DNA from: Gloeobacterales cyanobacterium
GTDB taxonomy: Bacteria; Cyanobacteriota; Cyanobacteriia; Gloeobacterales; PMM-0068
Assembly (NCBI GenBank): GCA_038245785.1
Contig: JBBRSB010000004.1
Location: 1 to 64,000, forward strand
Direction of reading: 5' to 3'
DNA length: 64,000 nt
This document shows positions 1 through 60,969 of this stretch, piece by piece (the stretch's first letter is position 1; every line of letters begins with the position of its first letter). The notes beneath the pieces were generated by a model. That model saw only the letters and a list, made by a program, of their open reading frames with translations. It was not told where the DNA came from and did not search any database. The translations under genes and the position numbers were made by a program.

Positions 1-12
1 GCTACCAAAGCG

Positions 13-300
13 CTAGGTTACTTCTTCGTTGGTGAAACGGACTACGCGGAGGCCTAAACTTTCTAGAATCAATGTGCGGTGCGCATCATAAGTTTGAGCC
101 TCTTCTGTAAAGTGGCTATTGCCGTCCACTGAACTCATCAGACAGTGCTCATGGATATAAAAATCTGCAATATAGCCTTCAAGAGGGCACCGGCGCCGAA
201 CTCGAAAAGGCAAGTATCGTAAGAATTCGTACCAGAGCTTACGCTCGGCGGGAGTAGGGCTACCCTGCATCTTACGGGCTCTAGAGATGAGCTTGTTCAT
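13..300 (-). pseudogene. DUF559 (Vsr-like very-short-patch) endonuclease, degenerate
   Basis: TPAERKLW..LR, YIADFY, VDGNSH and YDAHRT..LESLGLRVVRFTNEEV fit DUF559. The usual IEVDG reads SSVDG. The TAG at 13-15 looks premature because the homologous copy near 22310 reads TAT CGA TTT AGC there. Confidence 0.75.
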
Positions 301-362
301 ATAGTGTTCTCGCATCCCCTCGGTTCTAACCCTGCACCCGCAGCTTTCTCTCCCACGAAAAA

Positions 363-404
363 GCTCCCCTTTGAGGGGAGCTGTCCCGAAGGGACTGAGG
401 GGTT
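363..404. repeat. Double-hairpin REP-like repeat, copy A
   Basis: GCTCCCCTTTGAGGGGAGCTGTCCCGAAGGGACTGAGGGGTT; near-identical copies at 12045, 22220 and 22469; overlaps the pilQ stop codon. Confidence 0.9.
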
Positions 405-2427
405 ACTGCGGATTGACGCTGACCGTTGGTTGGCCAGAGGTGACAGGGTCTTTCATGATGTAGGGCGTGACCATCAAGACCGCTTCCCGCTTGCGATTCT
501 GGACAGAATCAATGCGGAAGAGACTACCAATAATGGGTAGGTCTCCCAAAATAGGTACTTTAGTGGTAGAGGTGAGGTCCTGATTCTGAAGCAAACCACC
601 GATAATAAACGTCTCTCCATCCCGCAGCCGGACCTTCTGGATGTCCAAGTTGCGGCGCGTCAAGAGCGTAATGATGTTGTTTTGAGCATCTCTATCTCTT
701 GAGGTGATCGAGCTGATTTCTGGCTTGAGAGACACATTCACGTAGCCATTATCATCAATCTGGAAGACTTCAGCTTTTAAGATAACCCCTGCTTTGTCTT
801 TCTCTATCGTGCTGGTAGTCAAGCCTGTAGCCGGATCTACCTGGATCTTGGTGCCTACTACCACATCATCGGTGATGTCGATTTTGGCAGAATTTCCCTT
901 ACTAAAGCTATCGGAAGATTGGACCAAAATCCGTGGTTCAGCCAGGACTTTAGATCGGTTAGCTACGATAGAGGCTTCAATGCGAGCTTGAATATTGGCG
1001 ACTGCAGCAGCGGCAGAGCTATCGAAAACTGCGGCAAATTTGTCTGCGACCCCACTGGGTCCAAAGGGTGTAGAGGTATCCAGACGTTGAATTGTGGGTG
1101 CTCCGCCCGCAAAGCTTTGCCCTGTGGCTAGGTTTATGGTCGAACCTGCATTGGTAGCGCTACTGGAAGTTGTTAGAAAGGGAGTAGTGCCTCCAAATCC
1201 TCCGTTGGAGAAGGTTCCAGTTCGGAACTGACCCAGGGAAGAACCAATGTTGATACCCAAATTCTCGTTGTCAGTCAGGTCAACATCGACCAATTTCACC
1301 GAAAGCAAGACCTGACGCTGACGGACATCCAGCTGAGAGATCTGAGCCGCTGCTACTTTCAATGCCCTAGCAGTACCGACCAAAGTTATAGAGTTGGTCC
1401 GGGCGTCTGGTTGGACAAACAGCTCTTCTTCGAGCTGAGTACTCAATTGTGTGATTTGAGGAACAACGGTTGCGACATCTGCTTGATTTAGGCGGAAGGT
1501 GCGAATAGAAGTTTGAATCAAGTCTTTCGGTAACTTCGCGCCAACCACAATGTTTTTATCAATTAAACGGGCTTTGAGGCCACTAAGTCTAAGTACTAGG
1601 TTAAAAGCATCTTCGACCGGGGCTTGTTTGAGGTCTAGCGTCACCGTAGCTTCGGTTACGTCTGGAGCGAACATGATGTTATAACCCGCTCGTCTTGCCA
1701 GGATTTGCAAGAAGGCTTTGGTTGGAACCGTTGCCCGTTCGATATTGACGATTTCAGGAGAGTTCAGTTTCACCGCAGATTCGACTGTGATATCGCCGAT
1801 GGCTACATCTCCCGTGGGAGGCGCTACCGCTCTTGCCGAAAACTTGCGGGGGCCTGTTTCACCATAAGTCCCAGGTTGTTTGAGGTCGACGGGCGTACTT
1901 ACCGTTGTCGTGGACTCTTTGTTGTCCGGTCGACGGGCTGCCACATCTGCTGTGGTGCTGCCTTGGGCTATCTGGCCTGCAGGACCAACATCAAAGCGAA
2001 GAGAATTAGGCAGAGTCTCCATGAGCGATAGCTTAGGAGCTGCTCCCCCTGTGCCCTTGACGGTCAGGCGGACCGTGCGGGGGTCCAGTTGCTGCGCTTC
2101 GACACTGCTAATCTTGTCGCTCGGCTTGGTCAAGGTGAAGGAGCGATTGTCGCCAATGCCTAAGCTCGTTTCGCGGATATCCACCACGTAGGTGTCACCT
2201 ACCGTATTTGAAACCACCTCAGGCTTGCTCGTGCTGCCAGTGAGGTTGAGCATCAGCACCTGACGCCCTGACTGGGTATCAACCCGAATGTCCGTAACTT
2301 TAGAACGAGTTGCTTGAGCTTGTACCGCTGCTGGGACGAGAACAACAGGGAAAACTACACCTAAAAAGACACTTACAGATAGAGCCAAAGTTGCGGCTAC
2401 CTGCTTTTGCACTCCTTGCACAAACAT
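403..2427 (-). CDS. pilQ: Type IV pilus secretin with N-terminal AMIN domain
   Basis: Signal peptide, AMIN-like region, secretin C-terminus (DGETFIIGGL..KVPILGDLPIIGSLF); last gene of the pilMNOP cluster. Confidence 0.93.
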   Translation of the reverse strand: MFVQGVQKQVAATLALSVSVFLGVVFPVVLVPAAVQAQATRSKVTDIRVDTQSGRQVLMLNLTGSTSKPEVVSNTVGDTYVVDIRETSLGIGDNRSFTLTKPSDKISSVEAQQLDPRTVRLTVKGTGGAAPKLSLMETLPNSLRFDVGPAGQIAQGSTTADVAARRPDNKESTTTVSTPVDLKQPGTYGETGPRKFSARAVAPPTGDVAIGDITVESAVKLNSPEIVNIERATVPTKAFLQILARRAGYNIMFAPDVTEATVTLDLKQAPVEDAFNLVLRLSGLKARLIDKNIVVGAKLPKDLIQTSIRTFRLNQADVATVVPQITQLSTQLEEELFVQPDARTNSITLVGTARALKVAAAQISQLDVRQRQVLLSVKLVDVDLTDNENLGINIGSSLGQFRTGTFSNGGFGGTTPFLTTSSSATNAGSTINLATGQSFAGGAPTIQRLDTSTPFGPSGVADKFAAVFDSSAAAAVANIQARIEASIVANRSKVLAEPRILVQSSDSFSKGNSAKIDITDDVVVGTKIQVDPATGLTTSTIEKDKAGVILKAEVFQIDDNGYVNVSLKPEISSITSRDRDAQNNIITLLTRRNLDIQKVRLRDGETFIIGGLLQNQDLTSTTKVPILGDLPIIGSLFRIDSVQNRKREAVLMVTPYIMKDPVTSGQPTVSVNPQ

Positions 2428-4642: not shown

Positions 4643-5755
4643 CTATAAATTCCTGAGACCTAGACCAAGCACGGTGCCGATGGAAGGGCGGTTCTCTTCC
4701 GAGACGGAGTTACTGTCCGGTAGCGCCAAAATCGAAACTGGATCCAAACGGGTAGCAGGAAGGTTGAGGCGCTGGGCGAGATATTGATCCATCTGGTTCA
4801 TGGTTGCTCCAGGGCCCGCCAACAAAAGATGGGAAAGAGGAGCGACTTCGCCTTGAGAAAGGTAGAAGTCCAAAGACCGCTGAATCTCTTCAGTAAGTTC
4901 CGTGAGGATGCGACGCAAGGCGGCGAGTCCACGTCCTGAGAAAGATTGGTCATCGGCATTGCCTGTGACCTGGCTACTCAGAGGAGGAGTAAGACTCTGC
5001 AACAAGCTAGAAGCCTGTCCAGGAGGGAGGTCTAAAGCTCTACTCAAAGTCTCTTTGAATTCCCAGGTGCCGATCGGAATCGTCCGTGTGAACCGAGGAA
5101 TTCCCTTAACCAGGATGCTCAGTTCTGTGACTTCCGCCTGAATGACGACAAGGGCCAGCGCTTCTTCGGGAGAAAATTCTAAGAGCTTAGAACGAATCGC
5201 TCGAATCAGGGCAAAGCTGGAAATATCGATCACTTGAGGGACGAGGTCAGCTTGCTCAATCGCTTGAATATAACTTTCCACAATCGAACGGGGGGCGGCA
5301 GTCAGCAGTACTTCCTGCCTGCGGACTCCATCAGGGTCTACTACTTCTTCGAGGGGTTGATAGTCCACATAGGCTTCGTGCCGGGGGAAGGGCAGATAGA
5401 GTTCCGCTTCTTGATTGAGGACGACTTCTCTCAGTTCAGCTGCTTGCAGATCTGCCGGTAGAGGAATCAGACGAATGACTGCCTCACGGGTTGGGATAGC
5501 GGTGGCAACTTGTTTGCCCTTGATATTGTTGCTTTGGAACAAATCTTGAATGATAGCTGAAACGGCCGCGATGTCTTCTACTTGGCCTTCCACTACCGCT
5601 CCTGCAGGGGTTGGAGCACTGACCAAATGCTTAAGGTCATACTGTTGTCCAGCCCGGCGGACCAATTGAGCGACCGTAATCTGGTCCTGTGTGATTTCGA
5701 TGCCCAAACCAGAACCGCCACGGTTAGGAAGTAGCCTCTTAAAAATGTTTTCCAC
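4643..5755 (-). CDS. pilM: Type IV pilus assembly protein PilM
   Basis: LGIEIT, EAELYLPF, EIQRSLDFY, LLLAGPGA and LGLGLR motifs; GTG start at 5755 preferred (ORF open to 5764). Confidence 0.92.
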   Translation of the reverse strand: MENIFKRLLPNRGGSGLGIEITQDQITVAQLVRRAGQQYDLKHLVSAPTPAGAVVEGQVEDIAAVSAIIQDLFQSNNIKGKQVATAIPTREAVIRLIPLPADLQAAELREVVLNQEAELYLPFPRHEAYVDYQPLEEVVDPDGVRRQEVLLTAAPRSIVESYIQAIEQADLVPQVIDISSFALIRAIRSKLLEFSPEEALALVVIQAEVTELSILVKGIPRFTRTIPIGTWEFKETLSRALDLPPGQASSLLQSLTPPLSSQVTGNADDQSFSGRGLAALRRILTELTEEIQRSLDFYLSQGEVAPLSHLLLAGPGATMNQMDQYLAQRLNLPATRLDPVSILALPDSNSVSEENRPSIGTVLGLGLRNL

Positions 5756-5853
5756 CCTACACAAAACCCCACTCAGAGGACATTTCTTACACCTTGTCTC
5801 GGTTACTAACTAGTAGAACAATCGCTTGAAAAGTTTTCTACTTCGTAGCCCTC

Positions 5854-6681
5854 TCACCATCCAATCAAGTTAAGATAGCCACTGACTAAAACATCTTGGG
5901 CGAATAAACTTACTATTCCCCCAAAGACTAAAAATGGACCAAAAGGAAAAACTTCTCCCTGTTTTATCCATTTCAAGGTTATAGCCAGCACCCCTCCTAT
6001 GGCTCCTGAAAGAAAGCCGACGGCAAGAGCGACAAGCAATCCTTGCCAACCGAGCCATGCTCCTAACATCGCAGCAAGTTTAGCATCCCCACCTCCCATA
6101 CCTTCTTTACCCAAGAGCTTTTCACTGCCGTAGGAAAGAAGATCAAAGAGGCCCAGGGCGAAGACGATCCCCCAGAGGCTCTGCATCAGACCATGAGAAG
6201 CTTGATTGCCATCATGGGTAATCAGAAGAGGCACTAAAGTATGAAAAAGAACCCCCAGCGCCACGAAGGGCCGGGTAATCTCATCGGGCAATTCCATGGT
6301 GTCCCAGTCCACTAAGGCCAAGGAAACCAGGGCTGCAGTCCAGAGTGAGTAGCCAATCACGGCGCCCCAACCAGAGGACATTCCAACCTGGCCCGACAGG
6401 GCTACCCCGATGAAAAGAAGGGCCATCAGCGCTTCTACCAGAGGATAACGCGCTGAAATTGGGGCTTGGCAGTTTTTGCAGCGCCCTTTTAGGAGGAGCC
6501 ATCCCAAGATAGGGATGTTCTCCGTGGGACCCAAAGTGCTATTGCAAGAGGGACAGCGGGAAGGAGGGTATACCAAAGAGATGCCCAAGGGCAAGCGGTA
6601 GGCTACTACATTGACAAAACTGCCAATACAAGCTCCCACTGTCCCCCAAAGAATCAGCGATGCGAAGTCTGCAACGCCCAT
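5854..6681 (-). CDS. pilD: Prepilin peptidase
   Basis: IGSFVNVVAYRLP, two CxxC pairs, GMGGGDAKL, PFGPFL. Confidence 0.95.
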   Translation of the reverse strand: MGVADFASLILWGTVGACIGSFVNVVAYRLPLGISLVYPPSRCPSCNSTLGPTENIPILGWLLLKGRCKNCQAPISARYPLVEALMALLFIGVALSGQVGMSSGWGAVIGYSLWTAALVSLALVDWDTMELPDEITRPFVALGVLFHTLVPLLITHDGNQASHGLMQSLWGIVFALGLFDLLSYGSEKLLGKEGMGGGDAKLAAMLGAWLGWQGLLVALAVGFLSGAIGGVLAITLKWIKQGEVFPFGPFLVFGGIVSLFAQDVLVSGYLNLIGW

Positions 6682-6821
6682 AAAGCCCTTGATACTTGAC
6701 TCATACTGTCCTTCAGTGTACCCAGTAGACCCGTACAGATACCAGAAAGCAGGGGTTAAATTACGGAAAGCTCATGGATTCAAAGCGATAACTTATAATT
6801 CGGGGGCACAGTACTCCGTGA

Positions 6822-8156
6822 ATGTACATGGCTTTAGTAAGGGTTATTGGCGCTGGTTTGGCGGGGACAGAATGTGCTTGGCAAATTGCTCAGGCCGGGG
6901 TTCCCGTGATCCTTTCAGAAATGCGCCCGATCCAAAAAAGTCCTGCTCACCATACGGAGCATGTAGCGGAGTTGGTCTGCTCTAATTCCTTTGGTGCTTT
7001 GGGCAGTGACCGCGCTCCTGGCCTACTAAAAGAAGAACTTCGCCGTTTAGGGTCTCTGGTCATTCAAGTGGCGGATGAATATGCTGTGCCAGCAGGAGGA
7101 GCGCTAGCCGTAGACCGCGCAGTGTTCAGTCAAAAACTGACAGAAATTTTGCAAAACCATCCTCTAATCGATTTTCGTAGGGAAGAAATTACCCAGATTC
7201 CTGAAGACGATATCGTTGTCCTCGCTACAGGACCGCTAACTAGTGACCCCCTTGCTCAGGCTCTAGAGCACTTTACCGGACTGGAATATCTCAGCTTTTT
7301 TGATGCAGCCAGCCCGATTATTGATGGCGAGTCCATCGATCGTGAACGGGCTTTCCTGGCTTCTCGCTATGACCGAGGAGAAGCAGCGTACTTAAATTGC
7401 CCGATGACCGAAGCAGAGTATGGGGCCTTCTGGGAGGCCCTGATTGAAGCCGAGCAAGCGCCCCTCAAAGACTTTGAAGATCTAGCCTCCCGGAAATTTT
7501 TTGAAGCCTGCTTACCCGTGGAAGAAATTGCCCGCCGAGGCTTTGAATCCCTCCGCTATGGCCCGCTCAAGCCTGTAGGGCTGGACGATCCGAGAACAGG
7601 GCGTTGGCCCTACGCGATCGTTCAACTGCGGATGGAAGACCGTCAGGGTAAGCTTTGGAATCTGGTGGGATTCCAAACTAATCTTAAGTGGGGCGAACAA
7701 CAACGGGTTTTTCGGATGATTCCCGGCCTGGAAGAAGCTCAGTTCGTGCGGCTGGGGGTTATGCATCGCAATACCTTCCTCTGCGCGCCCAAACTGCTTC
7801 GTCCGACCCTCCAGTTCCATAAAGCGCCCACTGTTTTGGCAGCTGGTCAACTAACGGGCACGGAGGGCTATACGCCTGCGGTAGCAGGGGGATGGCTCGC
7901 AGGGACAAATGCTGCCCTCTTAGCAAAGGGGGAAACCCCGATTACTCTTCCAATCACCACCATGTTAGGAGCGCTTGTTCAATACATCACCAGTGCTGAA
8001 CCCAAGCATTTTCAGCCTATGCCTCCCAACTTTGGCATCATGCCGGACCTACCTCAAAAAATTCGCAACAAAGTGGATCGTTATCGAGCCTATCGGGACC
8101 GAGCGCTCACAGATTTGAAGCAAATTTCTGTAGCTAAACGTACCCTTACTGGATAG
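6822..8156 (+). CDS. trmFO: Folate/FAD-dependent tRNA m5U54 methyltransferase
   Basis: [43 protein letters not shown]; start may be 6828. Confidence 0.96.
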
Positions 8157-8347
8157 TACGCATAAGAACAAAGGTCAGGAATTTTACCTCAGTATAACTA
8201 CTGGTAAACTTTGCGTAAGTTACGGATGCTTGCTGCTAGTTATTTTCTTACTATTAGTAACGAGAAGAACAGGATACGCCCGGCTATCAATATTTCATTT
8301 TTGAAGTAGAAATAGCTGGGCATTTATTTTGCCCGATGAGCTGCGTT

Positions 8348-9643
8348 TCAACTAATCCGCTGCAACTGTGCCCCGATCATCCGCAATTTTTCTTCAATCC
8401 GGTCATAGCCCCGGTCTAGATACTGCAAGCCCGCTACGTGAGTTTCTCCCTGAGCCGCTAAGCCTGCAAGAATTAGGGCTGCTGAAGCTCTAAGGTCTGT
8501 GGCATCTACCGGTGCTCCAGAGAGGAAGGGAACTCCTTTGACGATGGCATGGTTAGAGCGGATCTTGATGTCGGCTCCCATTCGATTCAGCTCCGAGGCA
8601 TGCTGCATCCGATTTTCAAACACCGTCTCACTAATCAGGCTGGTCCCTTCTCCTACGGCTAAAAGAGCCATGAAGAGGGCCTGCATATCTGTGGGGAAAC
8701 CTGGGAAGGGTAAGGTCTCAATGTGGACTTCTCTGCGCTCACGGGCAGGTCCTATCCTCAGATGATTAAGCCCCTCGGGTTCCACGGAATAGCCAATTTC
8801 TCTTAATTTAGCAATGGGCGCTGTCAAATGGTCTGTGAGTACAGGACCAACCACAATCGAAGAATTGGTAATCGCTCCGGCAATCAAGAAAGTTCCTGCT
8901 TCTATGCGGTCAGGAATAATCCCGTATTCAGTCCCATGCAGGCGGGGAACGCCGCTAATAACAATTGTCTTGGTGCCTGCCCCGCGAATCTTCGCGCCTA
9001 GGGAACGACAAAATCCTGCAAGGTCAGAAACTTCAGGTTCTTGCGCACAATTTTCTAAAATCGTTTCTCCCTCGGCAAGGGTCGCTGCCATCATCAAGGT
9101 TTCGGTGGCACCGACACTGGGATAGTCCAAATAAATTTTTGCTCCTTTGAGCTTGCGGGCATGGGCTTCTACCACTCCGTGCTCAATGCGCACATCGGCT
9201 CCCATAGCTTGCAGTCCGCGCACATGAAGCTCAACCGGTCTTGCCCCAATCGCACATCCTCCGGGAAGAGGCACTCGCGCCATGCCAAAGCGGGCCAACA
9301 GTGGACCCAAAATAAAGAAGCTTGCCCGTAGACGGCTGACCAACTCATAAGGCGCTTTGTATGACTTAATACTTCCGGCATCAATTTCGAGCCAACCCTC
9401 TCCGAAGCTAACTTTGGCCCCCAAGGCTCCCAAAACTTGGGACATCGTATCGATATCCATTAGCTTAGGAATGTTGGTGATGCGACAGGGCTCGGGACTT
9501 AAGATTGTTCCAGCCATAATGGCAAGGGCTGCATTTTTGGCCCCACTAACTGGAATAAATCCAGAAAGAGGACGTCCTCCAACAATCTTTAAGACAGGTT
9601 GGGACTGCTGAGTTAGGGGTTCAACAGAGAGCGTTGATGTCAA
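8348..9643 (-). CDS. murA: UDP-N-acetylglucosamine 1-carboxyvinyltransferase
   Basis: [43 protein letters not shown] start after GAGG (ORF open to 9688). Confidence 0.96.
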
Positions 9644-9846
9644 TTTTTTTTCCTCACACGGGTCAAGCTTGTTAGATTCTAACGGCAATGTTGTCTTCTT
9701 TGTTATCGGTTTGCATCTTTTTGTACGCTTTTAGATACTTTCTTAATAGATCTCTAAAACGTCTCTAAAGAATGCTGCAAATCTGATGACACTGGAGTTT
9801 CGCACTGAGTTGTGAATTCTCTATGAAGAACGTTTGTTGTTTCTAT

Positions 9847-9875
9847 GAAAAAGCCTCTGGAAACCCAGAGGCTTT
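9847..9875 (-). terminator. Rho-independent terminator of 6S RNA
   Basis: Minus strand AAAGCCTCTGG-GTTT-CCAGAGGCTTTTT. Confidence 0.8.
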
Positions 9876-10055
9876 AAACCCGCAACGCCGTTTTACCTCT
9901 TGTGGACGACCTGGAGTACCAGGGGGGGAATCACGGCTGTCTTTTAGAGGATACAGAACTTGTCTGCCATGCTCACCAGAACACGCTCTCGACTCCCATG
10001 CACATGAAGTTATAGACCGAGCAACATGATGGCAGTCACCAACGCCACAGGCTTC
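9876..10055 (-). ncRNA. ssrS: 6S RNA (cyanobacterial SsaA/6Sa type)
   Basis: About 180 nt; 5' GCCTGTGGCGTTG pairs with 3' CGGCGTTGCGGGT; resembles cyanobacterial 6Sa (GGTGACTGCCATC, GAGGTAAAACGGCGTTGCGG); -10 box TATGAT at 10060-10065; terminator follows. Confidence 0.85.
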
Positions 10056-10107
10056 CGCTATCATACCCGATAGAAGCTAGCCTCTATCAGACAGTTGGGG
10101 ACGGAAA

Positions 10108-10404
10108 TTAGAATAGCTCTGATTCTTGCTCTGTCAGAATTGTGCAATCAGAACAAGGATAGGCAATACAGGTCAAGATAAATCCTGCGGCTCGCTGTTC
10201 CTCGGTCAAAATGGTGCCCTCATCTTGGTTGGCAGTGCCTTCGGTGAGGCGTCCAGTACAGACGGAGCAAACGCCTGTACGGCAGGAATAGGGTAAGGTC
10301 ATCCCTTGTTGCTCAACTACTTCTAAAATCTTTTGGTCTTCTTTGACTTGGAAGGTACGGTCAAGGCCTTTTTTCTCATTGATTAAACGCACCGCATAAG
10401 TCAT
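10108..10404 (-). CDS. Plant-type [2Fe-2S] ferredoxin
   Basis: LPYSCRTGVCSVC..ILTCIAYPCSDCTILT. Confidence 0.93.
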   Translation of the reverse strand: MTYAVRLINEKKGLDRTFQVKEDQKILEVVEQQGMTLPYSCRTGVCSVCTGRLTEGTANQDEGTILTEEQRAAGFILTCIAYPCSDCTILTEQESELF

Positions 10405-10530
10405 GGCAAGTTTTATGGATAGGGATACCATGCGACATCGTAACTCTTAATCTCGTATGCTGGGAGTCTGATGATTCCAAGAACTTACAAGTTCTTATAG
10501 AACTGGAATCAAGTTTTTAGGATTGCTCTC

Positions 10531-11883
10531 ATGTCCACTCTGCCCATTGTTGCTATTGTTGGTCGCCCGAATGTGGGTAAATCGACGTTAATTAACCGAT
10601 TTTGCGGGGGACGAGAAGCAATCGTTCACGACGAGCCTGGCGTTACCCGTGACCGCCTCTATCTGCCTGCCGATTGGAATGGCTATTATTTCCAGATTGT
10701 GGATACGGGTGGTCTTGTCTTTGAAGACAAGGAAGAATTTCTCCCGAAAATTCGCCAGCAGGTAGAAGTTGCCCTGGAAGAAGCAAAAGCGGCCATCTTT
10801 GTCGTGGATGGTCAGCTAGGGCCCACGGCGGCGGACTATGAGGTGGCGGAATGGCTGAGAGGCCGTAAACTTCCGATTCTCTTGGCCGTCAACAAGTTAG
10901 AAGAATCCTCCACGGCTTTGACCTTAGCTTCAGAATTTTGGAGCCTTGGCTTAGGAGAGCCCTATGCCGTTTCTGCAATTCACGGTGCTGGTACAGGGGA
11001 CCTGCTCGATGCTTTGGTGCAGAACCTTCCTTTAGTAGGAGAGGAAGAAGCGCCGCCAGAATTAAAGGTGGCGATTGTCGGTAGACCGAATGTGGGTAAA
11101 TCTAGTTTGCTCAATGTCCTGGTTGGCAGTGAACGGTCGATTGTGTCGGCGATTTCTGGTACAACACGGGATGCAATCGATACGGTGATCGAGCGTGATG
11201 GCAAGCGTTATCGCTTTATTGATACCGCTGGCATCCGCAAGCGCTCAAAAGTAGACTACGGTCCGGAAGCCTTTGGCGTGGATCGGGCTTTGAAAGCGAT
11301 TCGCCGCGCTGATTTGGTACTACTGGTGATCGACGCCACGGAAGGGGCGACGGAACAGGAGCAACGCCTGGCGGGAAAAATCGAGGAATCCGGCAGGGCC
11401 TGTGTTTTGGTCGTCAACAAGTGGGATGCGGTAGAAAAAGACACCTACACGATGAATATCTATATCGAGCAGATTCGGGAAGAGCTGTACTTCGTCAAAT
11501 GGGCTCCGACTATTTTCACCAGCGCGCTCACTGGACAGCGGGTTCCTCAAATCATGGAGATGGTAGATGCCGCCAGTGTCCAACATCAGCGTCGGATTTC
11601 TACTTCTGTGATCAATGAAGCGATCAAAGAAGCAACGATCCGCATGATGCCACCTTCGGATAAGAGAGGTCGTCAAGGAAAAATCTACTATGGTACTCAA
11701 GTTCGAGCCGAGCCGCCTACTTTTGTTCTCTTTGTCAATGAACCGAAACTGATCAAAGACAACTATCGAACCTATTTGGAAAGTCAATTCCGAGCCAGTT
11801 TGGGATTTGAAGGAACACCCCTGAGATTCCTATGGCGAGGAAAAACACCCAGAGAAGTAGAGCGGGATGAGCGACGTGGTTGA
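10531..11883 (+). CDS. der: Ribosome biogenesis GTPase Der (EngA)
   Basis: Two GRPNVGKS GTPase domains and a KH-like C-terminus. Confidence 0.97.
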
Positions 11884-12044
11884 TGGTAAAGGGACGTCGC
11901 TCATTACGTCATGTGACCAAGCCTTAGATTGCTCGCAAAATTACAAGAGCCGAGGCTGAAGATCCCCTAGCTAAAAAGAACTTTAAAAGGCAGGGCTGAT
12001 TCATTCTTCGAAAGGGGGGCATAGGAGATCAGGCCTCCAGACCT

Positions 12045-12140
12045 ACCCCTCAGTCCCTACGGGACAGCTCCCCTGGGAGGGGAGCCTTTTCTTGGAAGAG
12101 AAAGCTGCAGGGGTGAGGATATAACTGAGGGGTGTGCAAC
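12045..12140. repeat. Double-hairpin repeat copy C plus adjacent DUF559-element subterminal sequence
   Basis: ACCCCTCAGTCCCTACGGGACAGCTCCCCTGGGAGGGGAGCC; the reverse complement of 12087-12140 aligns with about 305-362. Confidence 0.85.
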
Positions 12141-12142
12141 TA

Positions 12143-12218
12143 CCCCCTTGACATAGGCGTTCGCGTAGCGTCTCTGCAAGAGACAGCCTTCCCGAAGGGT
12201 GGGAGGAGCGGGGGGATC
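12143..12218. repeat. Cluster of small, probably nested hairpin repeats
   Basis: CCCCCTTG..GGCGTTCGCGTAGCG, TCTCT-GCA-AGAGA, CCTTCCCGAAGG, ..GGGGGGATC; a related degenerate stretch lies at 11961-12030. Confidence 0.5.
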
Positions 12219-12619
12219 TAAAGTTCATGCGAGTAGAAGTCCAGCACATTTAATCTGTTTGTGTTACCCTCCGTTCGTCATTTCAAAATCACATTCATGT
12301 TGCATTATTTGCACGGGAAATCATGTGACACATGATACATTGTGGACTCAATTCCAGTTTTTTAGGATATTTATTTCAGCAAATTTTTATTAGAAAATTA
12401 CTGAGTATTTTGCCTAAAACCTGAAATCTGACCTTAATAGGCGTTTACGATAAATTTCCTGGTTAATACTAAAAATAATACCTATTTATATACCAATTGC
12501 ACTCATTATCCTGCTTTTAAAAGCTAAGCGAATTAAGTAAGTTCGTAGTTATAGATACTGTTTCTCAAAATGTGGTCTATGCTGAGAGGGAGAACAGAAT
12601 GAAAACTAGGGGAAAACAA

Positions 12620-13024
12620 ATGGCTGATATTGTCGATACTGCTGTAAAAGCGGGTTCTTTTAACACTTTGGTTGCAGCGGTCAAGGCTGCTGGATTAGTA
12701 GATACGCTGAAAGGTGCTGGTCCATACACCGTCTTTGCACCGAATGACGCAGCATTTGCAAAGCTTCCAGCAGGTACGGTAGATGCCCTGCTCAAAGACA
12801 TCCCCAAGCTAAAGAAAATTCTGACCTATCATGTTGTTGCAGGCAAGGTAACAGCAGCTGATGTAAGCAAACTGAAGTCAGCGAAGACAGTTGAGGGCTC
12901 AGATGTGAAAATTGACATTTCTAATGGTGTCAAAATCAATGATTCCAAGGTCACGACAGCTGATGTTGCTGCTGACAATGGTGTTATTCACATCATCGAT
13001 ACCGTGTTGATGCCCTCTGCCTAA
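12620..13024 (+). CDS. Fasciclin (FAS1) domain protein
   Basis: [30 protein letters not shown]. Confidence 0.93.
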
Positions 13025-13045
13025 AATGCTGAGATTATGAGTACG

Positions 13046-13085
13046 AATAGAGCAGTAGCTACAAATAGTTACTGCTCTATTTTTA
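13046..13085 (+). terminator. Rho-independent terminator
   Basis: AATAGAGCAGTAGCTA-CAAA-TAGTTACTGCTCTATTTTTT. Confidence 0.8.
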
Positions 13086-13382
13086 TTATGTGCCGGATAG
13101 TTTAATAGAGGTTCCTAATTATTTTGTATTAAAACCATCTATCCAATAGCAATGATCTCAGTCCGCTTTGTTAGTTCTGATTAGAAATGTCCCTTTAAAT
13201 TAAGACGATTTTAGTTAAAAATCATGATCCTTCCTTCAGGGCTATTGCGAGGTCTTTCCGAATCTCAAAATGCTCAGTATCTGTCAAGCGAGGGAAGGCA
13301 GCAGGGACACACAAGACTCCGTCGTGAAATTGTGTGTACTTATTTGGACATGTGCCCTGAGATAGGGAAAGAATAAAAGGCT

Positions 13383-13655
13383 ATGGAAAAAGCCCCGAAG
13401 AAACCACGTATCGAGGTCCGCACGACCTCTGAAGCGAAGCGACTGCTCAAAGAAGCCGCCCAGCTGAACCAACAATCTGTGAGTGCGTTCTTACTCGATA
13501 ACGGATTGTCTGCCGCCGCTCTAGTCTTGGCTGACCGACGCCAGTTCTCCTTAGATGATGAGCAATGGGCCGCGTTTGTTAACGCGCTGGAGGCAGCACC
13601 CAAGCCGTGCAACCGTCTAGAGCGTTTATTATCTGAATCAGGAGTTTTCGATTGA
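13383..13655 (+). CDS. DUF1778 (TacA/AtaR-like) antitoxin
   Basis: RIEVR..KRLLKEAA..SVSAF..LADRRQFSLDDEQWAAFVNALEAAP; overlaps the GNAT gene. Confidence 0.9.
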   Translation: MEKAPKKPRIEVRTTSEAKRLLKEAAQLNQQSVSAFLLDNGLSAAALVLADRRQFSLDDEQWAAFVNALEAAPKPCNRLERLLSESGVFD

Positions 13656-14140
13656 GCACAGCTACCCATTTGTCCCTCTTGCCTATCGAGCGGCTTAAGG
13701 CAGACCATGACGTAAGCCAATTCAACTGCGGCAAAATAGCCCCCAATGATTTTCTCAAGCGTTTTGCGCTTGTGCAAAAGGCCGACAGTGCTCGTACCTA
13801 CGTCACCTGTGAAGGTGAGACCGTGGTTGGTTTCTATAGTCTGGCAGTGGGAACCATCACCTACAAAACCCACCCACCTATTCCAGTGATCATTGTCAGC
13901 CAATTAGCCGTAGACCAGCGGCATACCAAAAAAGGTATTGGGCAAGCCTTGCTTAAAGACGCTTTACTGCGTGCGGCCCAAGCGGCTGATATTGCAGGTA
14001 TCCAGGCCGTTTTGGTCTATGCCCAAGATGAAGATGCTCGTCGGTTTTACGAGCATTTCAATTTTGAACCCAGCCCCACAGACTCCTATCATTTGCTGCT
14101 AATGATGAAAGATCTGCGAAGCTTAACCGATTTATCTTGA
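13652..14140 (+). CDS. GNAT acetyltransferase toxin (TacT/AtaT-like)
   Basis: HDVSQFNCG, VVGFYSL, LAVD..KGIGQALLKDA, ARRFYEHFNF; coupled to DUF1778. Confidence 0.87.
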   Translation: MSTATHLSLLPIERLKADHDVSQFNCGKIAPNDFLKRFALVQKADSARTYVTCEGETVVGFYSLAVGTITYKTHPPIPVIIVSQLAVDQRHTKKGIGQALLKDALLRAAQAADIAGIQAVLVYAQDEDARRFYEHFNFEPSPTDSYHLLLMMKDLRSLTDLS

Positions 14141-14241
14141 AATTAAATCTTCCTTTAGGTGTAAAAAAGCACTGCAGCATATCCCATCCCTGATTATTCT
14201 AGGTAGGACATATTATTTGTCGGAAAAGATCTGTGCGGATT

Positions 14242-15177
14242 ATGGATAGAGACTTCTATGAAATTTTAGGTGTCCCTCTGAGCGCGGACAAGGAAGAAAT
14301 TAGACAAGCGTATCTACGCCTGGCCCGCCAATATCATCCAGACATGAGTCCTGCGCCTGCTGACAGAGATCTCTTCGAGAAGATTAACGAGGCGTATACC
14401 ACCCTGATTGATGATGAATCCCGCTGCATGTACAACCTCTATGGGAAAGAGGGTGAGATGAGAGAAGTACTGCAGGGAGCCCCTATATGGCCAAGACAGA
14501 ATTTTTGGGCTAGAGAGAACGCCTTGGTGGTAATTTTCGGTGTCGTGGGATTGGTGGGCTTAGCGGTGGTTGGACTTTTGCCCAACAGGCCTATTTTGGA
14601 ACAAGAACTGGATACGCTGGCGACGACGCTGCAATCTAAAAAAGCTGAGTTTGAACTATCGCAGAAGCAAATGGACCAAGCTCCTCCTACACCGGAGAAG
14701 CCGCCTATAGTAGCAACGGCTGAGGCTGAACCAGAAACAGCATTTCTATCCAGTGAGTCTAAGTTTTCTACTGCGAATCTTCCCCAGGCAGTAAAAGAAG
14801 CGATAGGGACGGGCTCAATGAGTATTTTAGAGCAAGCTCTTGCTCCGACTGTTCAACCTGTTAAACCCACTCAACCTGTTAAACCTTCCGACGCAAATGC
14901 TTCAGCCCGAAACTATGAGGTTTTAGCCTTCTATTCCTTGATCATTGGAGACCTCAATCAATTTAAGAATGCTATAGAGCGAGCTTCTGAGGAAGATCCT
15001 TCCTATAGCAAAATTAACGCTTTGCACCTTTCTTTCCAGCAACTAGAGTCTGCTAAGCTTCCTCCGGAAAGCATATTGAGCGTCCTGCGTGGCCTTGTTG
15101 TCCGTGAGTATCAAGATAGGTTGCTCCCATCGCAGCTTAAGGTTCTGCAGTCCTATGCTAAAAACAATGAGGCATGA
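14242..15177 (+). CDS. DnaJ-domain membrane protein
   Basis: DFYEILGV..HPD J-domain, then a TM helix; short PVKPTQPVKP duplication. Confidence 0.85.
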   Translation: MDRDFYEILGVPLSADKEEIRQAYLRLARQYHPDMSPAPADRDLFEKINEAYTTLIDDESRCMYNLYGKEGEMREVLQGAPIWPRQNFWARENALVVIFGVVGLVGLAVVGLLPNRPILEQELDTLATTLQSKKAEFELSQKQMDQAPPTPEKPPIVATAEAEPETAFLSSESKFSTANLPQAVKEAIGTGSMSILEQALAPTVQPVKPTQPVKPSDANASARNYEVLAFYSLIIGDLNQFKNAIERASEEDPSYSKINALHLSFQQLESAKLPPESILSVLRGLVVREYQDRLLPSQLKVLQSYAKNNEA

Positions 15178-15225
15178 ACCAACCCAGCGCATAGGGAATT
15201 GCGCGAGGGTAGATCATAAGTCGAG

Positions 15226-16515
15226 CTAAGTTGCTTTCGCCTGAACACTAACCAAAGGGCGTACGGCGAGGTCCTGCAATGTATGCAACAGACGGTGTAC
15301 TTCCTCCAGAGTATTGTAATGAGCCAATCCAATTCTTAAAAGCCCACCCCTTGATTCCACGCCCAATCTTTGCGTCAGACTGAGCGCGTAGAAATTTCCA
15401 TTCCAGGTGAAAATTCCACGCTCTCCTAAAGCTTTTGCCAGTTCATAGGGCGTATATCCAGCTAACAGCATTCCTACCGTTGGGGTACGCCAACCAAAGC
15501 GTTCCGGATCGGTGATGCCGTATAGGGTAACTCCTGAAATTTTCAGCAAGCTTGGGAGCAATTCTTGAGCAAGAGAGTGCTCATACGCTTGAATAGCCCT
15601 CATGGCAGCGACCAGTGCTTCTCGCTGATTCAATCCACCCGATACGTTTGATGAAACTCGGCGACCGAGTTTAGTTAAATAATCGATGGTTGCGACTAAT
15701 CCGGCTAAGCTCTCGAAATTCAGCGTGCCCGTCTCCCAACAGGCTGGAACTTCATTAGTCGCAGGGCGAACCTTATAGGGAAGCAATCGGCTTAGATGCT
15801 TATGCTTCCCGTATAGGATACCGAGGTGAGGTCCAAAGAATTTGTAGGCAGAACAGACTAGAAAGTCACAATCCAAGGCTTGAATATCAATAGAAGCATG
15901 AGGTGCATAGTGGACGGCATCGACAAAGACCAGTGCGCCAACGGCATGAGCCAATTGCCCGATCTTAGCCACAGGGTTGATCGTACCAACGGCATTAGAG
16001 GCATAGGTGACGGCCACCAGCTTCGTGCGTTCTGTGAGCTGCCGTTCCAGATCCGCTAGGTCTAGGGTGCAGTCCGCTTGAATGTCTACCGTCCGAACAA
16101 CAACACCCCGCTCTTGAAGCGCTAGCCAAGGAGCTATATTGGCATCGTGGTCAAGCATAGTCACCAGAATTTCATCACCTGGCTGCAGGTCACGTCCAAT
16201 GGCCCGACTGATTGCAAACGTCAGGGTGGTCATGTTGGCCCCGAAAACTATTTCATCGGGGCGGCATCCTAGAAAGTCAGCTGTAGCCTCCCGTGCCTTT
16301 GCAACTAGGGCATCCGTCCGAGCACTGGTTGCAAAGGCTCCATGCAAGTTGGCATTGGAGCTGGTCAGGTAATCAGAAATCGCATCAATTACGCTCTGAG
16401 GAACCTGAGTGCCGCCGGGTCCATCTAGAAATACTACCGATTGGCCATCCATTTTTTGCTTAAGGGCAGGGAATTGGGCCCGCACCCATCCAAGTTCAAG
16501 GTCTAAAGCAGGCAT
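15226..16515 (-). CDS. Cysteine desulfurase-like PLP enzyme (aminotransferase class V)
   Basis: FLDGPGGTQVP, DHDANIAPW, VDAVHYAPH, CSAYKFFGPH, ETGT. Confidence 0.9.
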   Translation of the reverse strand: MPALDLELGWVRAQFPALKQKMDGQSVVFLDGPGGTQVPQSVIDAISDYLTSSNANLHGAFATSARTDALVAKAREATADFLGCRPDEIVFGANMTTLTFAISRAIGRDLQPGDEILVTMLDHDANIAPWLALQERGVVVRTVDIQADCTLDLADLERQLTERTKLVAVTYASNAVGTINPVAKIGQLAHAVGALVFVDAVHYAPHASIDIQALDCDFLVCSAYKFFGPHLGILYGKHKHLSRLLPYKVRPATNEVPACWETGTLNFESLAGLVATIDYLTKLGRRVSSNVSGGLNQREALVAAMRAIQAYEHSLAQELLPSLLKISGVTLYGITDPERFGWRTPTVGMLLAGYTPYELAKALGERGIFTWNGNFYALSLTQRLGVESRGGLLRIGLAHYNTLEEVHRLLHTLQDLAVRPLVSVQAKAT

Positions 16516-16530
16516 AGAAATCTCCTGGAA

Positions 16531-17226
16531 CTATGACTCATCCGGCGGAAACAGACCGGGGCAAGTGAGGACAAAAACATCCCTAACGCCCTGTTCTTCC
16601 GAGGTCGCGTGAATAGGAGAAGTATAGTGAAAGTACTGATCGTCTCTGAAGACTAAAAACTCGCCCGGACTCAGTACTTTGCTGAAAACAGGTTTATCAC
16701 TCTTCGTTTTATAAAGGTGCGTCTCTGCCCCTTCAACCTTACTTCGATGGACGGAGAAGATACCCACTAAATCCACCCCATCCCGGTGAATCCCTTCAGG
16801 AGCTGGGTTCCCAACTTTGAGAGAAGTAGCCACAGTCCTAATCTGGTGAACGGCAACTTCGTGAGAGGTTGAGCAGAGTTGGCAGAACTGGAAAAATTCC
16901 CAAATAATCTTTTGAAAGCCTGCTAGTTGAACCAATTCATCATCCAACTCTTCATATTCCCGAATAACATCTCCCAGCAGGGGATTGTAGGCTTTGCTTT
17001 GGAGCATACGTCGATGCGGTAACTTGGTTAAATGGTCACCAGAAACTTTAAAGTGAGAAAGACGTCTAAAACGGTATCCTCCCTCCAGATAGGGATCGAC
17101 GGGTAGACGATCGAAAGAAGGCTCACATTCCTCTACCTTGATGGCTGTCAACATCTCCAAAACATAACTGGCTAGACAACTAGCCTCTGGTCTAGAAAAT
17201 TCTTCTTGTTTAGATAAATTCAGCAT
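16531..17226 (-). CDS. 2OG-Fe(II) dioxygenase family protein
   Basis: DPYLEGGYRFRR, VHQIR, PEGIHRDG (HxD), distal His in FHYTSPI, RDVFVLT. Confidence 0.85.
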   Translation of the reverse strand: MLNLSKQEEFSRPEASCLASYVLEMLTAIKVEECEPSFDRLPVDPYLEGGYRFRRLSHFKVSGDHLTKLPHRRMLQSKAYNPLLGDVIREYEELDDELVQLAGFQKIIWEFFQFCQLCSTSHEVAVHQIRTVATSLKVGNPAPEGIHRDGVDLVGIFSVHRSKVEGAETHLYKTKSDKPVFSKVLSPGEFLVFRDDQYFHYTSPIHATSEEQGVRDVFVLTCPGLFPPDES

Positions 17227-17732
17227 GTCATTGATTTCCTTGCTTAAATTTATGGTTCAATTCTTAAGAACTAGTGAGCTTGAAGGGGTAGTATCTGAAC
17301 ATTCAGCTGGAGTGCAATGTTGATAATCCAAGGCGACTTACTACTTCTTAACATCCCTTTATGAAGTCATTTGTTGCAAAAAATACCAAAATGCTCACCA
17401 GCCTTTTAGATTTGAGGGATCTAATTCTATTGGTGTTCAACGTGTTAATTGAATAAGCAACTTGATATGAAAAGTATTAGACAAGCTGCCTTAGCCCTCC
17501 TCTTATAAGTAAGGCAAAAGTGTCGAAAAGTATCATGTTCTACAACGCAAAACTGATGATACCTGCATCTACAGGCATACCGTACAGTTGAGCTGTTTAG
17601 GATCTATCTCAGCTGTTCAGTTATGTCTGCTAACTCAATTGTAGTTATATTTTCAATGATTGTCGATCCCCAAATAGCTGGGAAGCTTTCAGGACTGCAG
17701 GTATTTGCGACAGACTACTGCTGGTAATGCAA

Positions 17733-18131
17733 TTATTCGGAGATGCTGTGCTGGACTACATGGTCATTCCAGAGCTGATCTAGTTTTGCATAGGCTTGTT
17801 CTGTAGAGAGTTTGCCGCCCGTGTGAAAAGCACAAACATAGCTAACCTTTCGAGCAAACTCCTGCAAGTTGGCATCTAAAACCAGGCACTCCGTCTGGAC
17901 CTTGAAGGGAGAAGAGAGATCTCGTTCTTGGCTGGGGTTAAGTTCGGATTGTACAGATTGAGTATTTTCAGCCACTTCAGATCTACCAGTAGCTGGGGCA
18001 GTTTGAAACACGTCTGCCAACTTTGACCAAGGAAGAGAGAAAGGATTTTGTAGATATCGCTGGATCAGTGATTTCTTTTCTACCAATCCCTCTGAGTCTT
18101 CTAAAAAGTAAGTATCTGTATCTTTTGACAT
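17733..18131 (-). CDS. Conserved cyanobacterial hypothetical protein
   Basis: C-terminal NLQEFARKVSYVCAFHTGGKLSTEQAY motif resembles a small cyanobacterial family; GGAG RBS upstream. Confidence 0.7.
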   Translation of the reverse strand: MSKDTDTYFLEDSEGLVEKKSLIQRYLQNPFSLPWSKLADVFQTAPATGRSEVAENTQSVQSELNPSQERDLSSPFKVQTECLVLDANLQEFARKVSYVCAFHTGGKLSTEQAYAKLDQLWNDHVVQHSISE

Positions 18132-18825
18132 GGAGGTTCTCCTTTAAAAAATTGAGTTTGCTTGCAAGCTTTGATTCAAAAGAATTTGGATAATAATGAT
18201 GCTGAACTACAATTGAAAAATATAAATATTGCTCAACTTGCTCTGTTCAATACAGTAAGTTTAGAAGCTAATGATAGATATGATAGGAGCCTAAGAATTG
18301 GTATGCAATGGACAATCTTTCGGTTCAATGAGCCATTCTTTCGGTCCTGTTCTTGAAAATTTAGTTGTTAAGGTAAGTTCACCGTAAGAAAAGACAGAGC
18401 AGATAAGCTAAAAGTGCTTAATTCCTAACCTCCCTGCTCACTGCCTTTGTTGACAGGTTTGATCTATCTTTACTATAAAAAAATGACTAAGAACAAACAT
18501 CTGATAAACGTCGTGAATCTTGCCTGGACAAAGTAGATAGATCCCTGAGGACTTTTGTTAACTAAGTAAGTAAATATCCCTAAGACAAAAGTTGAGTCCT
18601 GTTTCCCAAGAGGCAATGGTCGAAAAGTATCTATTGATACAAGGCTGAGTCAAAGACGGCTTACTGGCTAAAGAATCAGTTTCCCCAGGCCAAAATCTAT
18701 AGCGGCTTATAACTATATCTAACTGATTAAATCAAGTGAATGAATTAGAACTGAATTCTTACCAGATGCATCCTGATAAGAATGTATACCGCCATAACAA
18801 CGCCTCTTGCTCTAAAGGTCCCTAC

Positions 18826-19536
18826 ATGATTCGGCTCTTACTCGTTGATGACCAAGACCTCATTTGTCAAGGGCTGAAGGCCATGCTGGCACTGGAACCG
18901 GATTTGCAGGTGGTGGGAACCGCTAGAGATGGTGCAGCTGCTCTTGAACAGGTCGCAGCTCTCAAGCCAGATATGGTGCTGATGGATGTACAGATGCCTG
19001 TAATGGATGGAAGAGAGGCTACACGGAGGATTTGTCAGCAGTTCCCAGAGGTCCACGTTCTAGTCTTGAGTACATTTGATGATGATCAATACATTGCTCA
19101 GTCCATACGAGCGGGAGCGAAGGGCTATTTGCTCAAGGATATGCCGTCAGAAGAGCTAGCACAGGCCATCCGCCTAGTCCATCGAGGGTATACCCAACTA
19201 GGGCCAGGGCTGATGGAAAAGCTAATTATCAGTCTTCCCGACTCAGATACTGCCAATACTGTTAATCAAGCGTCTGTTGTGTTGGTTCAACAAGAATTGG
19301 CTAAGCTAACTGCTCGGGAACGAGACGTACTGCACTTGCTTGGTTCCGGTCTACCTAACCGTGAAATTGCTCAGAAACTTTATATTACGGAAGGAACGGT
19401 CAAAACGTACGTTACGCACCTTTTAAGCCACCTAAACCTGCGGAACCGAGCGCAAATAGCCATTTATGCTAATTCTGTTTTGAGTGGAGACTCTAGATCT
19501 CAGACACCGGTTATGGGAACGGGGCTTCCATCGTGA
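18826..19536 (+). CDS. NarL/LuxR-family response regulator
   Basis: MIRLLLVDDQ receiver domain plus LT.RERDVL..NREIAQKLYITEGTVKTY HTH. Confidence 0.93.
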   Translation: MIRLLLVDDQDLICQGLKAMLALEPDLQVVGTARDGAAALEQVAALKPDMVLMDVQMPVMDGREATRRICQQFPEVHVLVLSTFDDDQYIAQSIRAGAKGYLLKDMPSEELAQAIRLVHRGYTQLGPGLMEKLIISLPDSDTANTVNQASVVLVQQELAKLTARERDVLHLLGSGLPNREIAQKLYITEGTVKTYVTHLLSHLNLRNRAQIAIYANSVLSGDSRSQTPVMGTGLPS

Positions 19537-19626
19537 ATATAAAAGCATCAGCCATTCCATCGACTTTTAATTCTAGACCGCTACAGTGGCACTAGAGAAG
19601 TCAGGATTGCTAACGCTCCCCCTAAG

Positions 19627-21942: not shown

Positions 21943-22157
21943 CAGTCCCTGGAAAGATTATGAGCATCGATGAAACTACTATTGATCCCCTGCTCCGCAT
22001 GGGAAAAGTAAGCTTCGGCGGCATTCTCAAAGAAGTTAGCCTGGCCTACGTCCCTGAAGCCCAGTTAGGAGACTATGTGGTGGTGCATGTCGGTTTTGCT
22101 ATCAGTACGCTAGATAAGCAAGAGGCTGAAAGAGTATTTGAGGATTGCAGCAAATAG
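21933..22157 (+). CDS. hypC: Hydrogenase maturation chaperone HypC
   Basis: MCLAVPG..GDYVVVHVGFAI; C-terminus possibly frameshifted. Confidence 0.92.
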   Translation: MCLAVPGKIMSIDETTIDPLLRMGKVSFGGILKEVSLAYVPEAQLGDYVVVHVGFAISTLDKQEAERVFEDCSK

Positions 22158-22219
22158 CAACTCATACCCAGAAGGCTAAACAGTCTTAGGCCAACCCTTA
22201 GAGGAGTTGCAGTATTCCT

Positions 22220-22512
22220 CAACCCCTCAGTCCCTTCGGGACAGCTCCCCTCGAAGGGGAGCCTATTCTGGAAGCAGAAGGATTGATTAGATTTAGATAC
22301 AGGCGCTGCTAAATCGATAGACCACTTGCTCATAGATGGGACTATGCGTAGACTTAAACTTTCTAGAATCAATGTGCGCTAAGCCTCATCGGAATGAGCT
22401 TCTTTCTCTTAGTGTCTTGCATCCTTTAAGTTCAAGCCTTGCACCTGCAGCTTTGTCTACCCAAAAAGGGCTCCCCTTCGAGGGGAGCTGTCCCGAAGGG
22501 ACTGAGGGGTTG
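22220..22512. mobile_element. MITE-like element: 44-bp perfect inverted repeats around an internally deleted DUF559 remnant
   Basis: 22220-22263 is the exact reverse complement of 22469-22512; 22355-22378 is identical to 55-78; about 22393-22468 aligns with about 287-362. Confidence 0.8.
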
Positions 22513-22513
22513 T

Positions 22514-60590: not shown

Positions 60591-60969
60591 TGGTGGAGCT
60601 GACGGGAGTCGAACCCGTGTCCATCCGTAGCTATTAGACTCCCATTCATTCACAGGCTTAGCCTCTTTAACCCCAGAGACCGGGCGCTTCGTACCCAAAA
60701 GCGAAGGGTTTCCCTAACTGTTCTTAAGTCGGTATCCGTCAGGACTATACCAACAGCATCCGATGGGGGTTTGCTTAAAGCCTTATCGGCGTTAACTTTA
60801 AGCCTCTCACACAAATTAAGGCAATTTGTGCTTACGCGGCCAAGGCCACCTTACGAGAGAAAGGAACGAAGTTGTTCGCATTTACTGTTTTGAACTGATT
60901 TTACGGGATCGGATCACTCCCGGCCTGCAGAGAAGCGGTTCGCTAGAATGTCGAAACCGTGACAGCCCC
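60591..60969 (-). ncRNA. ssrA: tmRNA
   Basis: 5' GGGGCTGTCACGGTTTCGAC; 3' GGGTTCGACTCCCGTCAGCTCCACCA; tag frame 60879-60832 encodes ANNFVPFSRKVALAA*. Confidence 0.96.

Follow-up and report, generated by a model that had tools for sequence, protein, structure and literature searches.

Do a small nuclease-like gene and the folded repeats around it, at the left end of a cyanobacterial contig, form a mobile element, and if so, what moves it? The locus lies in a stretch of 64,000 nucleotides, hereafter the window, which is the first 64 kb of contig C4 in the Gloeobacterales genome G000 (255 contigs, 98% complete; position 1 is the contig start). Two genomes of the same genus, G001 (94% complete) and G002, served for comparison. 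A first reading of the window, made from its letters alone (the sequence-only reading), had noticed a decayed gene of the DUF559 family next to a repeat, and had proposed that repeat, gene and repeat make up a cassette that moves as a unit. The unit has very probably moved as a whole, as proposed: intact cassettes, 20 two-ended copies, empty orthologous sites and the recovered far end all point to this. It measures about 490 bp and has about twenty internally deleted copies, and we favour, with moderate confidence, its spread by the Vsr-like nuclease that it encodes together with host repair.

A 30-nt repeat core occurs four times in the window, at 374-403 (-), 12045-12074 (+), 22222-22251 (+) and 22481-22510 (-), whereas shuffled sequence gave 0 matches in 100 shuffles. 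The recurrences listed earlier at 12045, 22220 and 22469 are thereby confirmed. Upon folding, the repeat consists of a ACCCCTCA head, then hairpin 1 (383-395, 5-bp stem and 3-nt loop), then hairpin 2 (363-381, 8-9-bp stem and 3-nt loop); both hairpins of the first description do fold, the stem of hairpin 1 having been parsed slightly off. The parts of the window that belong to the element, or adjoin it, are as follows.

1-12 (-): 3' rest of the DUF559 gene past the premature stop, truncated by the contig start; the remainder and the far repeat are on G000:C63:7073-7110
13-315 (-): DUF559 (Vsr-like) open reading frame (ORF), 100 aa, decayed, with another residue in place of the conserved Glu; it shares 80% identity with the intact 130-aa copy of G002
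316-362 (-): 5' subterminal region, with a T-run after hairpin 2 and a purine-rich stretch before the ATG
363-403 (-): 5' terminal repeat, with the ACCCCTCA head at 403-396, hairpin 1 at 395-383 and hairpin 2 at 381-363
403-2427 (-): host pilQ-like secretin gene, left flank of the insertion, outside the element
12045-12132 (+): lone 5'-type end, repeat and subterminal sequence
12133-12222 (-): far side of the 12045 copy, occupied by a C-rich hairpin repeat of another kind, whose loop contains a small nested insert
22222-22510 (.): two-ended deletion derivative of 289 bp, 3 nt from the stop codon of a GHL10 gene; 3'-type repeat at 22222-22263, frameshifted 3' gene remnant to about 22395, 5' subterminal part, and 5'-type repeat at 22469-22510

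The ORF at 13-315 matches DUF559 (Pfam PF04480, E 1.3e-19) and is decayed, as had been claimed: a premature stop at 13-15 costs it about 30 residues, including the last helix, and its IEVDG motif has become SSVDG when compared with 48 aligned relatives. The distance of about 60 bp between repeat and gene holds if counted to the second Met (62 nt), the hairpin-to-ATG spacing being 47 nt. If read from pilQ, the 363-403 repeat is terminator-like, and it starts on the final A of the pilQ stop codon (the names pilQ, argC and der rest on Pfam domains or recognised translated motifs). The ends at 12045 and 22469 share the 5' subterminal sequence of 316-403 (83% over 82-88 nt), and the 22220 repeat faces a remnant of the DUF559 3' end, both as first described; 22222 and 22510 turn out to be the two ends of a single deleted copy. 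The inverted copy expected past the 3' end of the window gene was found at G000:C63:7073-7110, beside argC as in G002. This far end carries an insertion sequence (IS) within hairpin 2, which explains the contig break at the window start.

We then counted copies of the repeat over the genomes. G000 holds 70 (nhmmer), 42 of which form 21 adjacent inward pairs spanning 63-482 bp; the pair C3:61917-62305 was added by hand from BLAST, giving 22 pairs. Twenty of the 22 align along the intact cassette, 19 of them with internal deletions, and the other two are bare palindromes. Cassette interior follows 50 of the 70 ends and scores above all 500 random control windows; among the other 20 ends, many are interrupted by an IS or a contig end, belong to bare palindromes, or no longer have the 5' interior. 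Near-full DUF559 gene copies number three in G000, plus remnants, and intact cassettes were found in G002 (one) and on contig C59 of G000 (two, with an intact gene copy at G000:C59:8569-8967). G002 contains exactly two repeats, the ends of its single intact 488-bp cassette, whose 130-aa ORF extends by its last codons into the 3' repeat. In G001 there were zero repeats and no match to the DUF559 protein query P0001.

The outer edge of the element is sharp, at ACCCCTC (ACC in 63/63, with variable flanks). Beyond it we saw a weak T-Y-C-A bias and no other common target sequence. Flanks share 0-2 nt at most in all 22 pairs, that is, no target duplication was seen, although old copies may have lost it. 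Ends are 87-94% alike, compared with 66-74% for interiors, and one base pair of hairpin 1 is kept in 60/60 scorable copies (49 T-A, 11 G-C; 10 unscored). The greater likeness of the ends suggests that they are under a constraint of their own, be it mobility, use as host terminators, or conversion. Copies with a common deletion group together (bootstrap 84, 87 and 100, in a tree mostly unresolved), which fits a re-copying of deleted copies in trans.

Other features of the copies were recorded along the way. Eleven ends, which have their outer flanks in common and carry G-C as a compensatory pair in hairpin 1, make up a subfamily adjoining the repeats of a second DUF559 family (G000:C6:147711, C24:11683, C28, C35, C38, C55 and C59:104); it appears to be a composite unit that spread recently. 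One IS is inserted at the identical point of hairpin 2 in all six places where its 20-nt end was found (G000:C63:7108, C6:155797, C15:271 and 98801, C14:102599, C34:52630), and it appears to target the DUF559 repeat and to break the assembly there; from recognised motifs, we take its C-terminus to be IS4/IS50-like. A second IS, presumably IS110-like and reminiscent of IS110 members that target repetitive extragenic palindromes (REP), abuts CTCAG in 4/4 places, twice within the repeat head (G000:C59:9044, C28, C45, C23). The loop of hairpin 2 can also contain tiny palindromic units of about 20-27 nt, in places one within another (window 12150-12205; G000:C1:275161, C3:43412, C15:81453, C34:52392, and others), and these resemble the small dispersed repeats of cyanobacteria.

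Comparison of filled and empty sites, which the sequence-only reading had suggested, bears on movement. The pilQ-argC site is filled in G000 and G002 and empty in G001, which has 23 other bases instead; a few bases next to the ends are common to both filled genomes. Fourteen sites were examined in the congeners, and at nine of these one congener or more showed synteny on both flanks. At eight of these nine the element is absent in the congeners (C11:78380, C12:40392, C1:389254, C29:22525, C2:272769, C2:94675, C24:52958 and C1:274861), the sole filled case being G002 at pilQ. Sites with broken or unmatched synteny (C4:22221, C4:12045, C1:297072, C14:95283) or a partial match (C22:20901, C14:102335) were not counted as empty. 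Several empty congener sites hold a different hairpin repeat (L060 in G002 after the GHL10 gene; L083/L084, L286, L288), suggesting that sites are reused or replaced. In contigs of related strains (runs X3 and X4), C59:2074 is joined to 3333, precisely at a repeat's outer edge, and the C59 stretch skipped in these strains also holds a toxin-antitoxin pair. This toxin-antitoxin-like pair, at G000:C59:2075-2822 next to the cassette, is skipped on its own in related strains. Over window positions 5000-24900, the related-strain runs gave no clean joint across 22222-22510 among the matches listed.

When did the pilQ-argC element arrive? Between the G000 and G002 copies dS is 0.41 (21/67 sites), against 1.05 for argC and 0.95 for der (p 3.3e-4). 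Hence the host split predates the element, which entered at least one of the lineages laterally. Either it arrived twice at one site, or it arrived once in the ancestor of G001 and G002 (argC dS 0.32) and was then lost in G001.

A homing process could also leave one site occupied in two species, with low dS and shared adjacent bases. DUF559 would then be a free-standing EDxHD homing endonuclease: it would cleave particular empty sites and be copied through allelic gene conversion, with the repeats secondary, and among characterised proteins its fold is indeed nearest to that of I-Bth0305I (PMC3239194). We consider homing very unlikely: the unit occupies more than 20 unrelated sites whose common sequence is limited to the weak T-Y-C-A bias, no intron or intein and no separate DNA-binding domain accompany a protein of 130 aa, and allelic homing cannot put deleted copies at new loci.

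We next looked at the protein itself. The ratio of nonsynonymous to synonymous divergence (dN/dS) is 0.17-0.28 in all six pairs of gene copies (p 1.3e-5 for one pair), and intact copies are thus under purifying selection. A model of the G002 protein (pLDDT, the predicted local distance difference test, 87) matches 3HRL (Z 14.4), I-Bth0305I (12.0), which is the nearest fold among characterised proteins, and Vsr (11.3), three proteins grouped together in PMC3424549; its match to TnsA reaches Z 7.3 only. At least 90% of 48 relatives conserve six residues (E24, D51, E62, D64, H68, D77). Searches of Pfam (with P0001) and NCBIfam (with P0001 and P0002) gave DUF559 alone, and no DDE, HUH, serine or DEDD transposase domain. 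DUF559 shares with I-Bth0305I and Vsr the fold and a similar acidic/His active-site set, E-x-D-G-x-x-H (PMC3239194, PMC3424549). It differs from them by the absence of N-terminal DNA-binding modules, intron or intein, by its many unrelated sites and by the hairpin ends; unlike Vsr, it is not beside a cytosine methylase here. The earlier statement that DUF559 has no established role thus needs a caveat, namely the fold shared with I-Bth0305I and the repair function proposed for the Caulobacter DUF559 protein VsrA (PMC12907096).

Is the association of DUF559 with inverted hairpins general? G000 has three other DUF559 genes, each between its own inverted C-rich hairpin ends; one of these repeat families has 45 copies and the two others consist of their own two ends. 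The four DUF559 clades of G000 are mutually unrelated, and the gene on C12 has BoxC-like ends. The link across genomes that had been proposed was also found. Inverted flanks (score of at least 30) were detected at 47 of 67 foreign DUF559 loci, mostly from Bacillota, against 1 of 239 shifted controls, and at 18 of 25 loci from the class of the host, against 0 of 48 (12/79 and 5/30 loci were excluded for short flanks, and related loci are not independent in these counts). On a protein tree the repeat type clusters, with 18 changes compared with 45.7 when shuffled; this was a quick tree of 100 rows with crude repeat labels, from which rows with stops or fewer than 80 aligned residues were dropped, including the window copy and G000:C12. 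Strict co-inheritance of protein and repeat fails for the host clade on this tree.

DUF559 cassettes with BoxC-like ends were also seen in frame within long ORFs (330-1800 aa), where the ends read as Pro/Gly-rich linkers (L011, L012, L014-L018, L023-L025, L030). In gut metagenome contigs (L169-L283), the repeat core forms mosaic clusters, amounting to 115 loci with 27 distinct flanks.

Could host functions alone account for such ends? DUF559 might be a host very-short-patch-type repair nuclease, or an inert passenger, with hairpins spread via host replication and repair and kept as terminators. VsrA was proposed to be a T:G repair enzyme and causes an SOS response in a methylase mutant (PMC12907096), although VsrA activity in vitro is absent from the passages of that paper. 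BoxC-type repeats have been linked to genomic instability, no enzyme being known for them (PMC4666352), and most metagenome copies of the repeat have no nearby gene. In G000, 16/66 ends lie within -6 to +10 nt of a converging stop codon, compared with 2.5% of random intergenic points (a null that counts small genes as intergenic), and the window end scores as a terminator; a T-run is nevertheless present at 18/58 ends only, and G001 has no match to P0001. This explanation leaves without cause the own inverted ends of four unrelated DUF559 clades in one genome, the inverted ends at 72% and 70% of foreign loci, and the joint travel of both ends and gene scraps. We therefore hold it to be unlikely.

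The label "REP-associated" given to the unit raises another candidate, an HUH tyrosine transposase (RAYT/TIRYT or IS200-like) that would move it in trans as a long REPIN, with DUF559 as cargo. The likeness to REP/REPIN-RAYT systems and TIRtrons extends to multicopy intergenic hairpin repeats, inward pairs, conserved ends and no target duplication (PMC3116915, PMC3733652, PMC8266576), as well as to a position shortly past genes, a single clade of enzyme for each repeat family, and IS that insert into repeats. HUH enzymes work with hairpin ends and make no target duplication (PMC8266576, PMC3116915), and the repeat agrees at 7/8 positions with GGGGWSAS, a motif of TIRYT ends (PMC3733652), but internally. 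In contrast to REP/RAYT, the enzyme encoded is a Vsr-like PD-(D/E)XK nuclease and not an HUH protein, the GTAG/CGTC tag is lacking and a ACCCCTCA head is found in the 70 listed copies, the gene is multicopy and laterally mobile rather than single-copy and vertical, and non-autonomous copies consist of the gene cassette with deletions rather than of pairs with short spacers. The unit is not a member of REP/RAYT, and the label has to be dropped.

Does an HUH enzyme nevertheless act on it? G000 has a RAYT-like gene (G000:C9:17700-18290, below the family cut-off) and six Y1_Tnp matches, and RAYT-like fragments adjoin DUF559 in L009 and L021. All six Y1_Tnp matches lack a repeat within 3 kb, and contig C9 lacks any copy; its gene carries, in frame within its own ORF, a GTAG-type palindrome of a separate family with 21 strand matches in the genome. 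In G000, no RAYT or IS200 gene flanked by the DUF559 repeat was found, which rejects such genes as the cognate enzyme and agrees with the sequence-only reading, for which a transposase so flanked would have spoken against the cassette. Seven queries for Y1/RAYT, of limited reach, gave no match either at 79 DUF559 loci from other genomes or at the 115 loci of the repeat. In addition, G002 has RAYT-like genes yet one cassette only, and a cargo role would not need a dN/dS near 0.2. Movement by an HUH enzyme is thus quite unlikely in our view. An IS200-like gene with its own hairpin was also seen on G000:C219, a 1.2-kb contig of 43% GC that is possibly a binning contaminant.

In the mechanism that we propose instead, the DUF559 nuclease would recognise the folded end and nick at or beside its edge, and would probably nick the target too. 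Host repair would then copy the unit into a new intergenic site with no target duplication. The nuclease would act in trans on deleted copies, and ends would be retained as terminators just past host stop codons. This nick-and-repair route is suggested because the absence of duplication, the variable target loss and the decay by internal deletion fit it. We infer each step: nuclease action on the ends, already raised as a possibility by the sequence-only reading, action in trans, repair, and retention as terminators. Hydrolytic nucleases of the Vsr-like fold are not known to join strands. The cassette is probably a new class of mobile element, with DUF559 as a candidate for the role of mover.

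Several observations weigh against this reading, in addition to the RAYT-like gene of G000 and the RAYT-like fragments in L009 and L021. Starting from the repeat in the metagenome scan, DUF559 lay within 700 bp at 1/115 loci only (1/27 distinct flanks), as is expected, though not proven, if ends far outnumber genes. The protein of the host clade falls among cyanobacterial proteins associated with a different kind of repeat, while the repeat of the clade looks like the clostridial one. At many clostridial loci the gene's closest repeat faces the opposite way, which differs from the pattern of simple terminal repeats. Of the four DUF559 genes of G000, two have their own two repeats only, and G002 has one cassette; such low numbers indicate that the presence of the gene does not force spread. 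Shared deletions could recur through microhomology. Copies are old, with long branches, and no recent identical pair was found save for the subfamily within the larger repeat. Finally, junctions are blurred at about 80% host identity, and some sites lost 20-80 nt, others none.

How does the unit relate to other known repeats and elements? BoxC/PIT/TMECO intrastrand-triplex repeats (PMC4666352) have, like the DUF559 repeat, pyrimidine, mirror and complementary arms (CCCCTC ... CTCCCC ... GGGGAG). The window repeat has a 16-nt hairpin as spacer instead of 3 nt, with 6-nt arms, and departs from the TMECO consensus of that paper. Over DUF559 loci the mirror arrangement is barely favoured over the direct one, with 170 against 122 out of 612 arms and 47 against 42 out of 67 loci. 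In E. coli, a TMECO/BoxC that fits the consensus lies on the 3' side of the DUF559 gene ycjD, and a degenerate one overlaps the end of the gene; no TMECO/BoxC was seen on its 5' side. The passages of PMC12817139 describe ycjD in place of the eef operon and leave repeats unmentioned, and those of PMC4666352 report that no linked mobile element or nuclease was found for BoxC/TMECO repeats. Tentatively, and at somewhat less than even chance, we suggest that DUF559 cassettes are a distinct mobile class of about 0.5 kb present across phyla and working by Vsr-like nicking and host repair, that the orphan C-rich hairpin repeats found in many bacteria, including the E. coli BoxC/PIT beside ycjD, are their non-autonomous ends, and that DUF559 is the missing mobiliser.

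IS and miniature inverted-repeat transposable elements (MITE) also have one ORF between terminal inverted repeats, and two-ended deleted copies apparently re-copied in trans. The DUF559 unit differs from both by the absence of a known transposase ORF and of target duplication, and by ends folded into double hairpins; at about 490 bp it is also shorter than IS, which measure 0.8-2 kb (PMC3733652). The ShiLan insertion of phage methylase genes is likewise nuclease-bearing and neither intron nor intein, but its nuclease, to judge by the title of the paper, is of the HNH type and it occupies one site in one gene family, whereas the DUF559 unit is intergenic and multi-site (PMC11855218). In Rfam, no family covers the repeat, and the window matches only transfer-messenger RNA (tmRNA; gene at 60591-60969) and 6S RNA (gene at 9873-10056).

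A literature search, to which subscription papers were out of scope, found no paper tying DUF559 to repeats. The novelty consists of a series of deletions within a single genome, one site that has both filled and empty alleles and shows a dS gap, a genome with four nuclease/repeat pairs, and the targeting of hairpins by IS. G000 and its sisters offer a natural experiment, with an intact 488-bp autonomous candidate, some twenty derivatives, and both filled and empty alleles. Many abundant hairpin repeats of bacteria have no known mobilising enzyme. If the proposal is true, DUF559/YcjD gains a function, and if a 130-residue hydrolytic nuclease suffices, transposition would have a route that belongs to none of the DDE, HUH, serine and retro classes.

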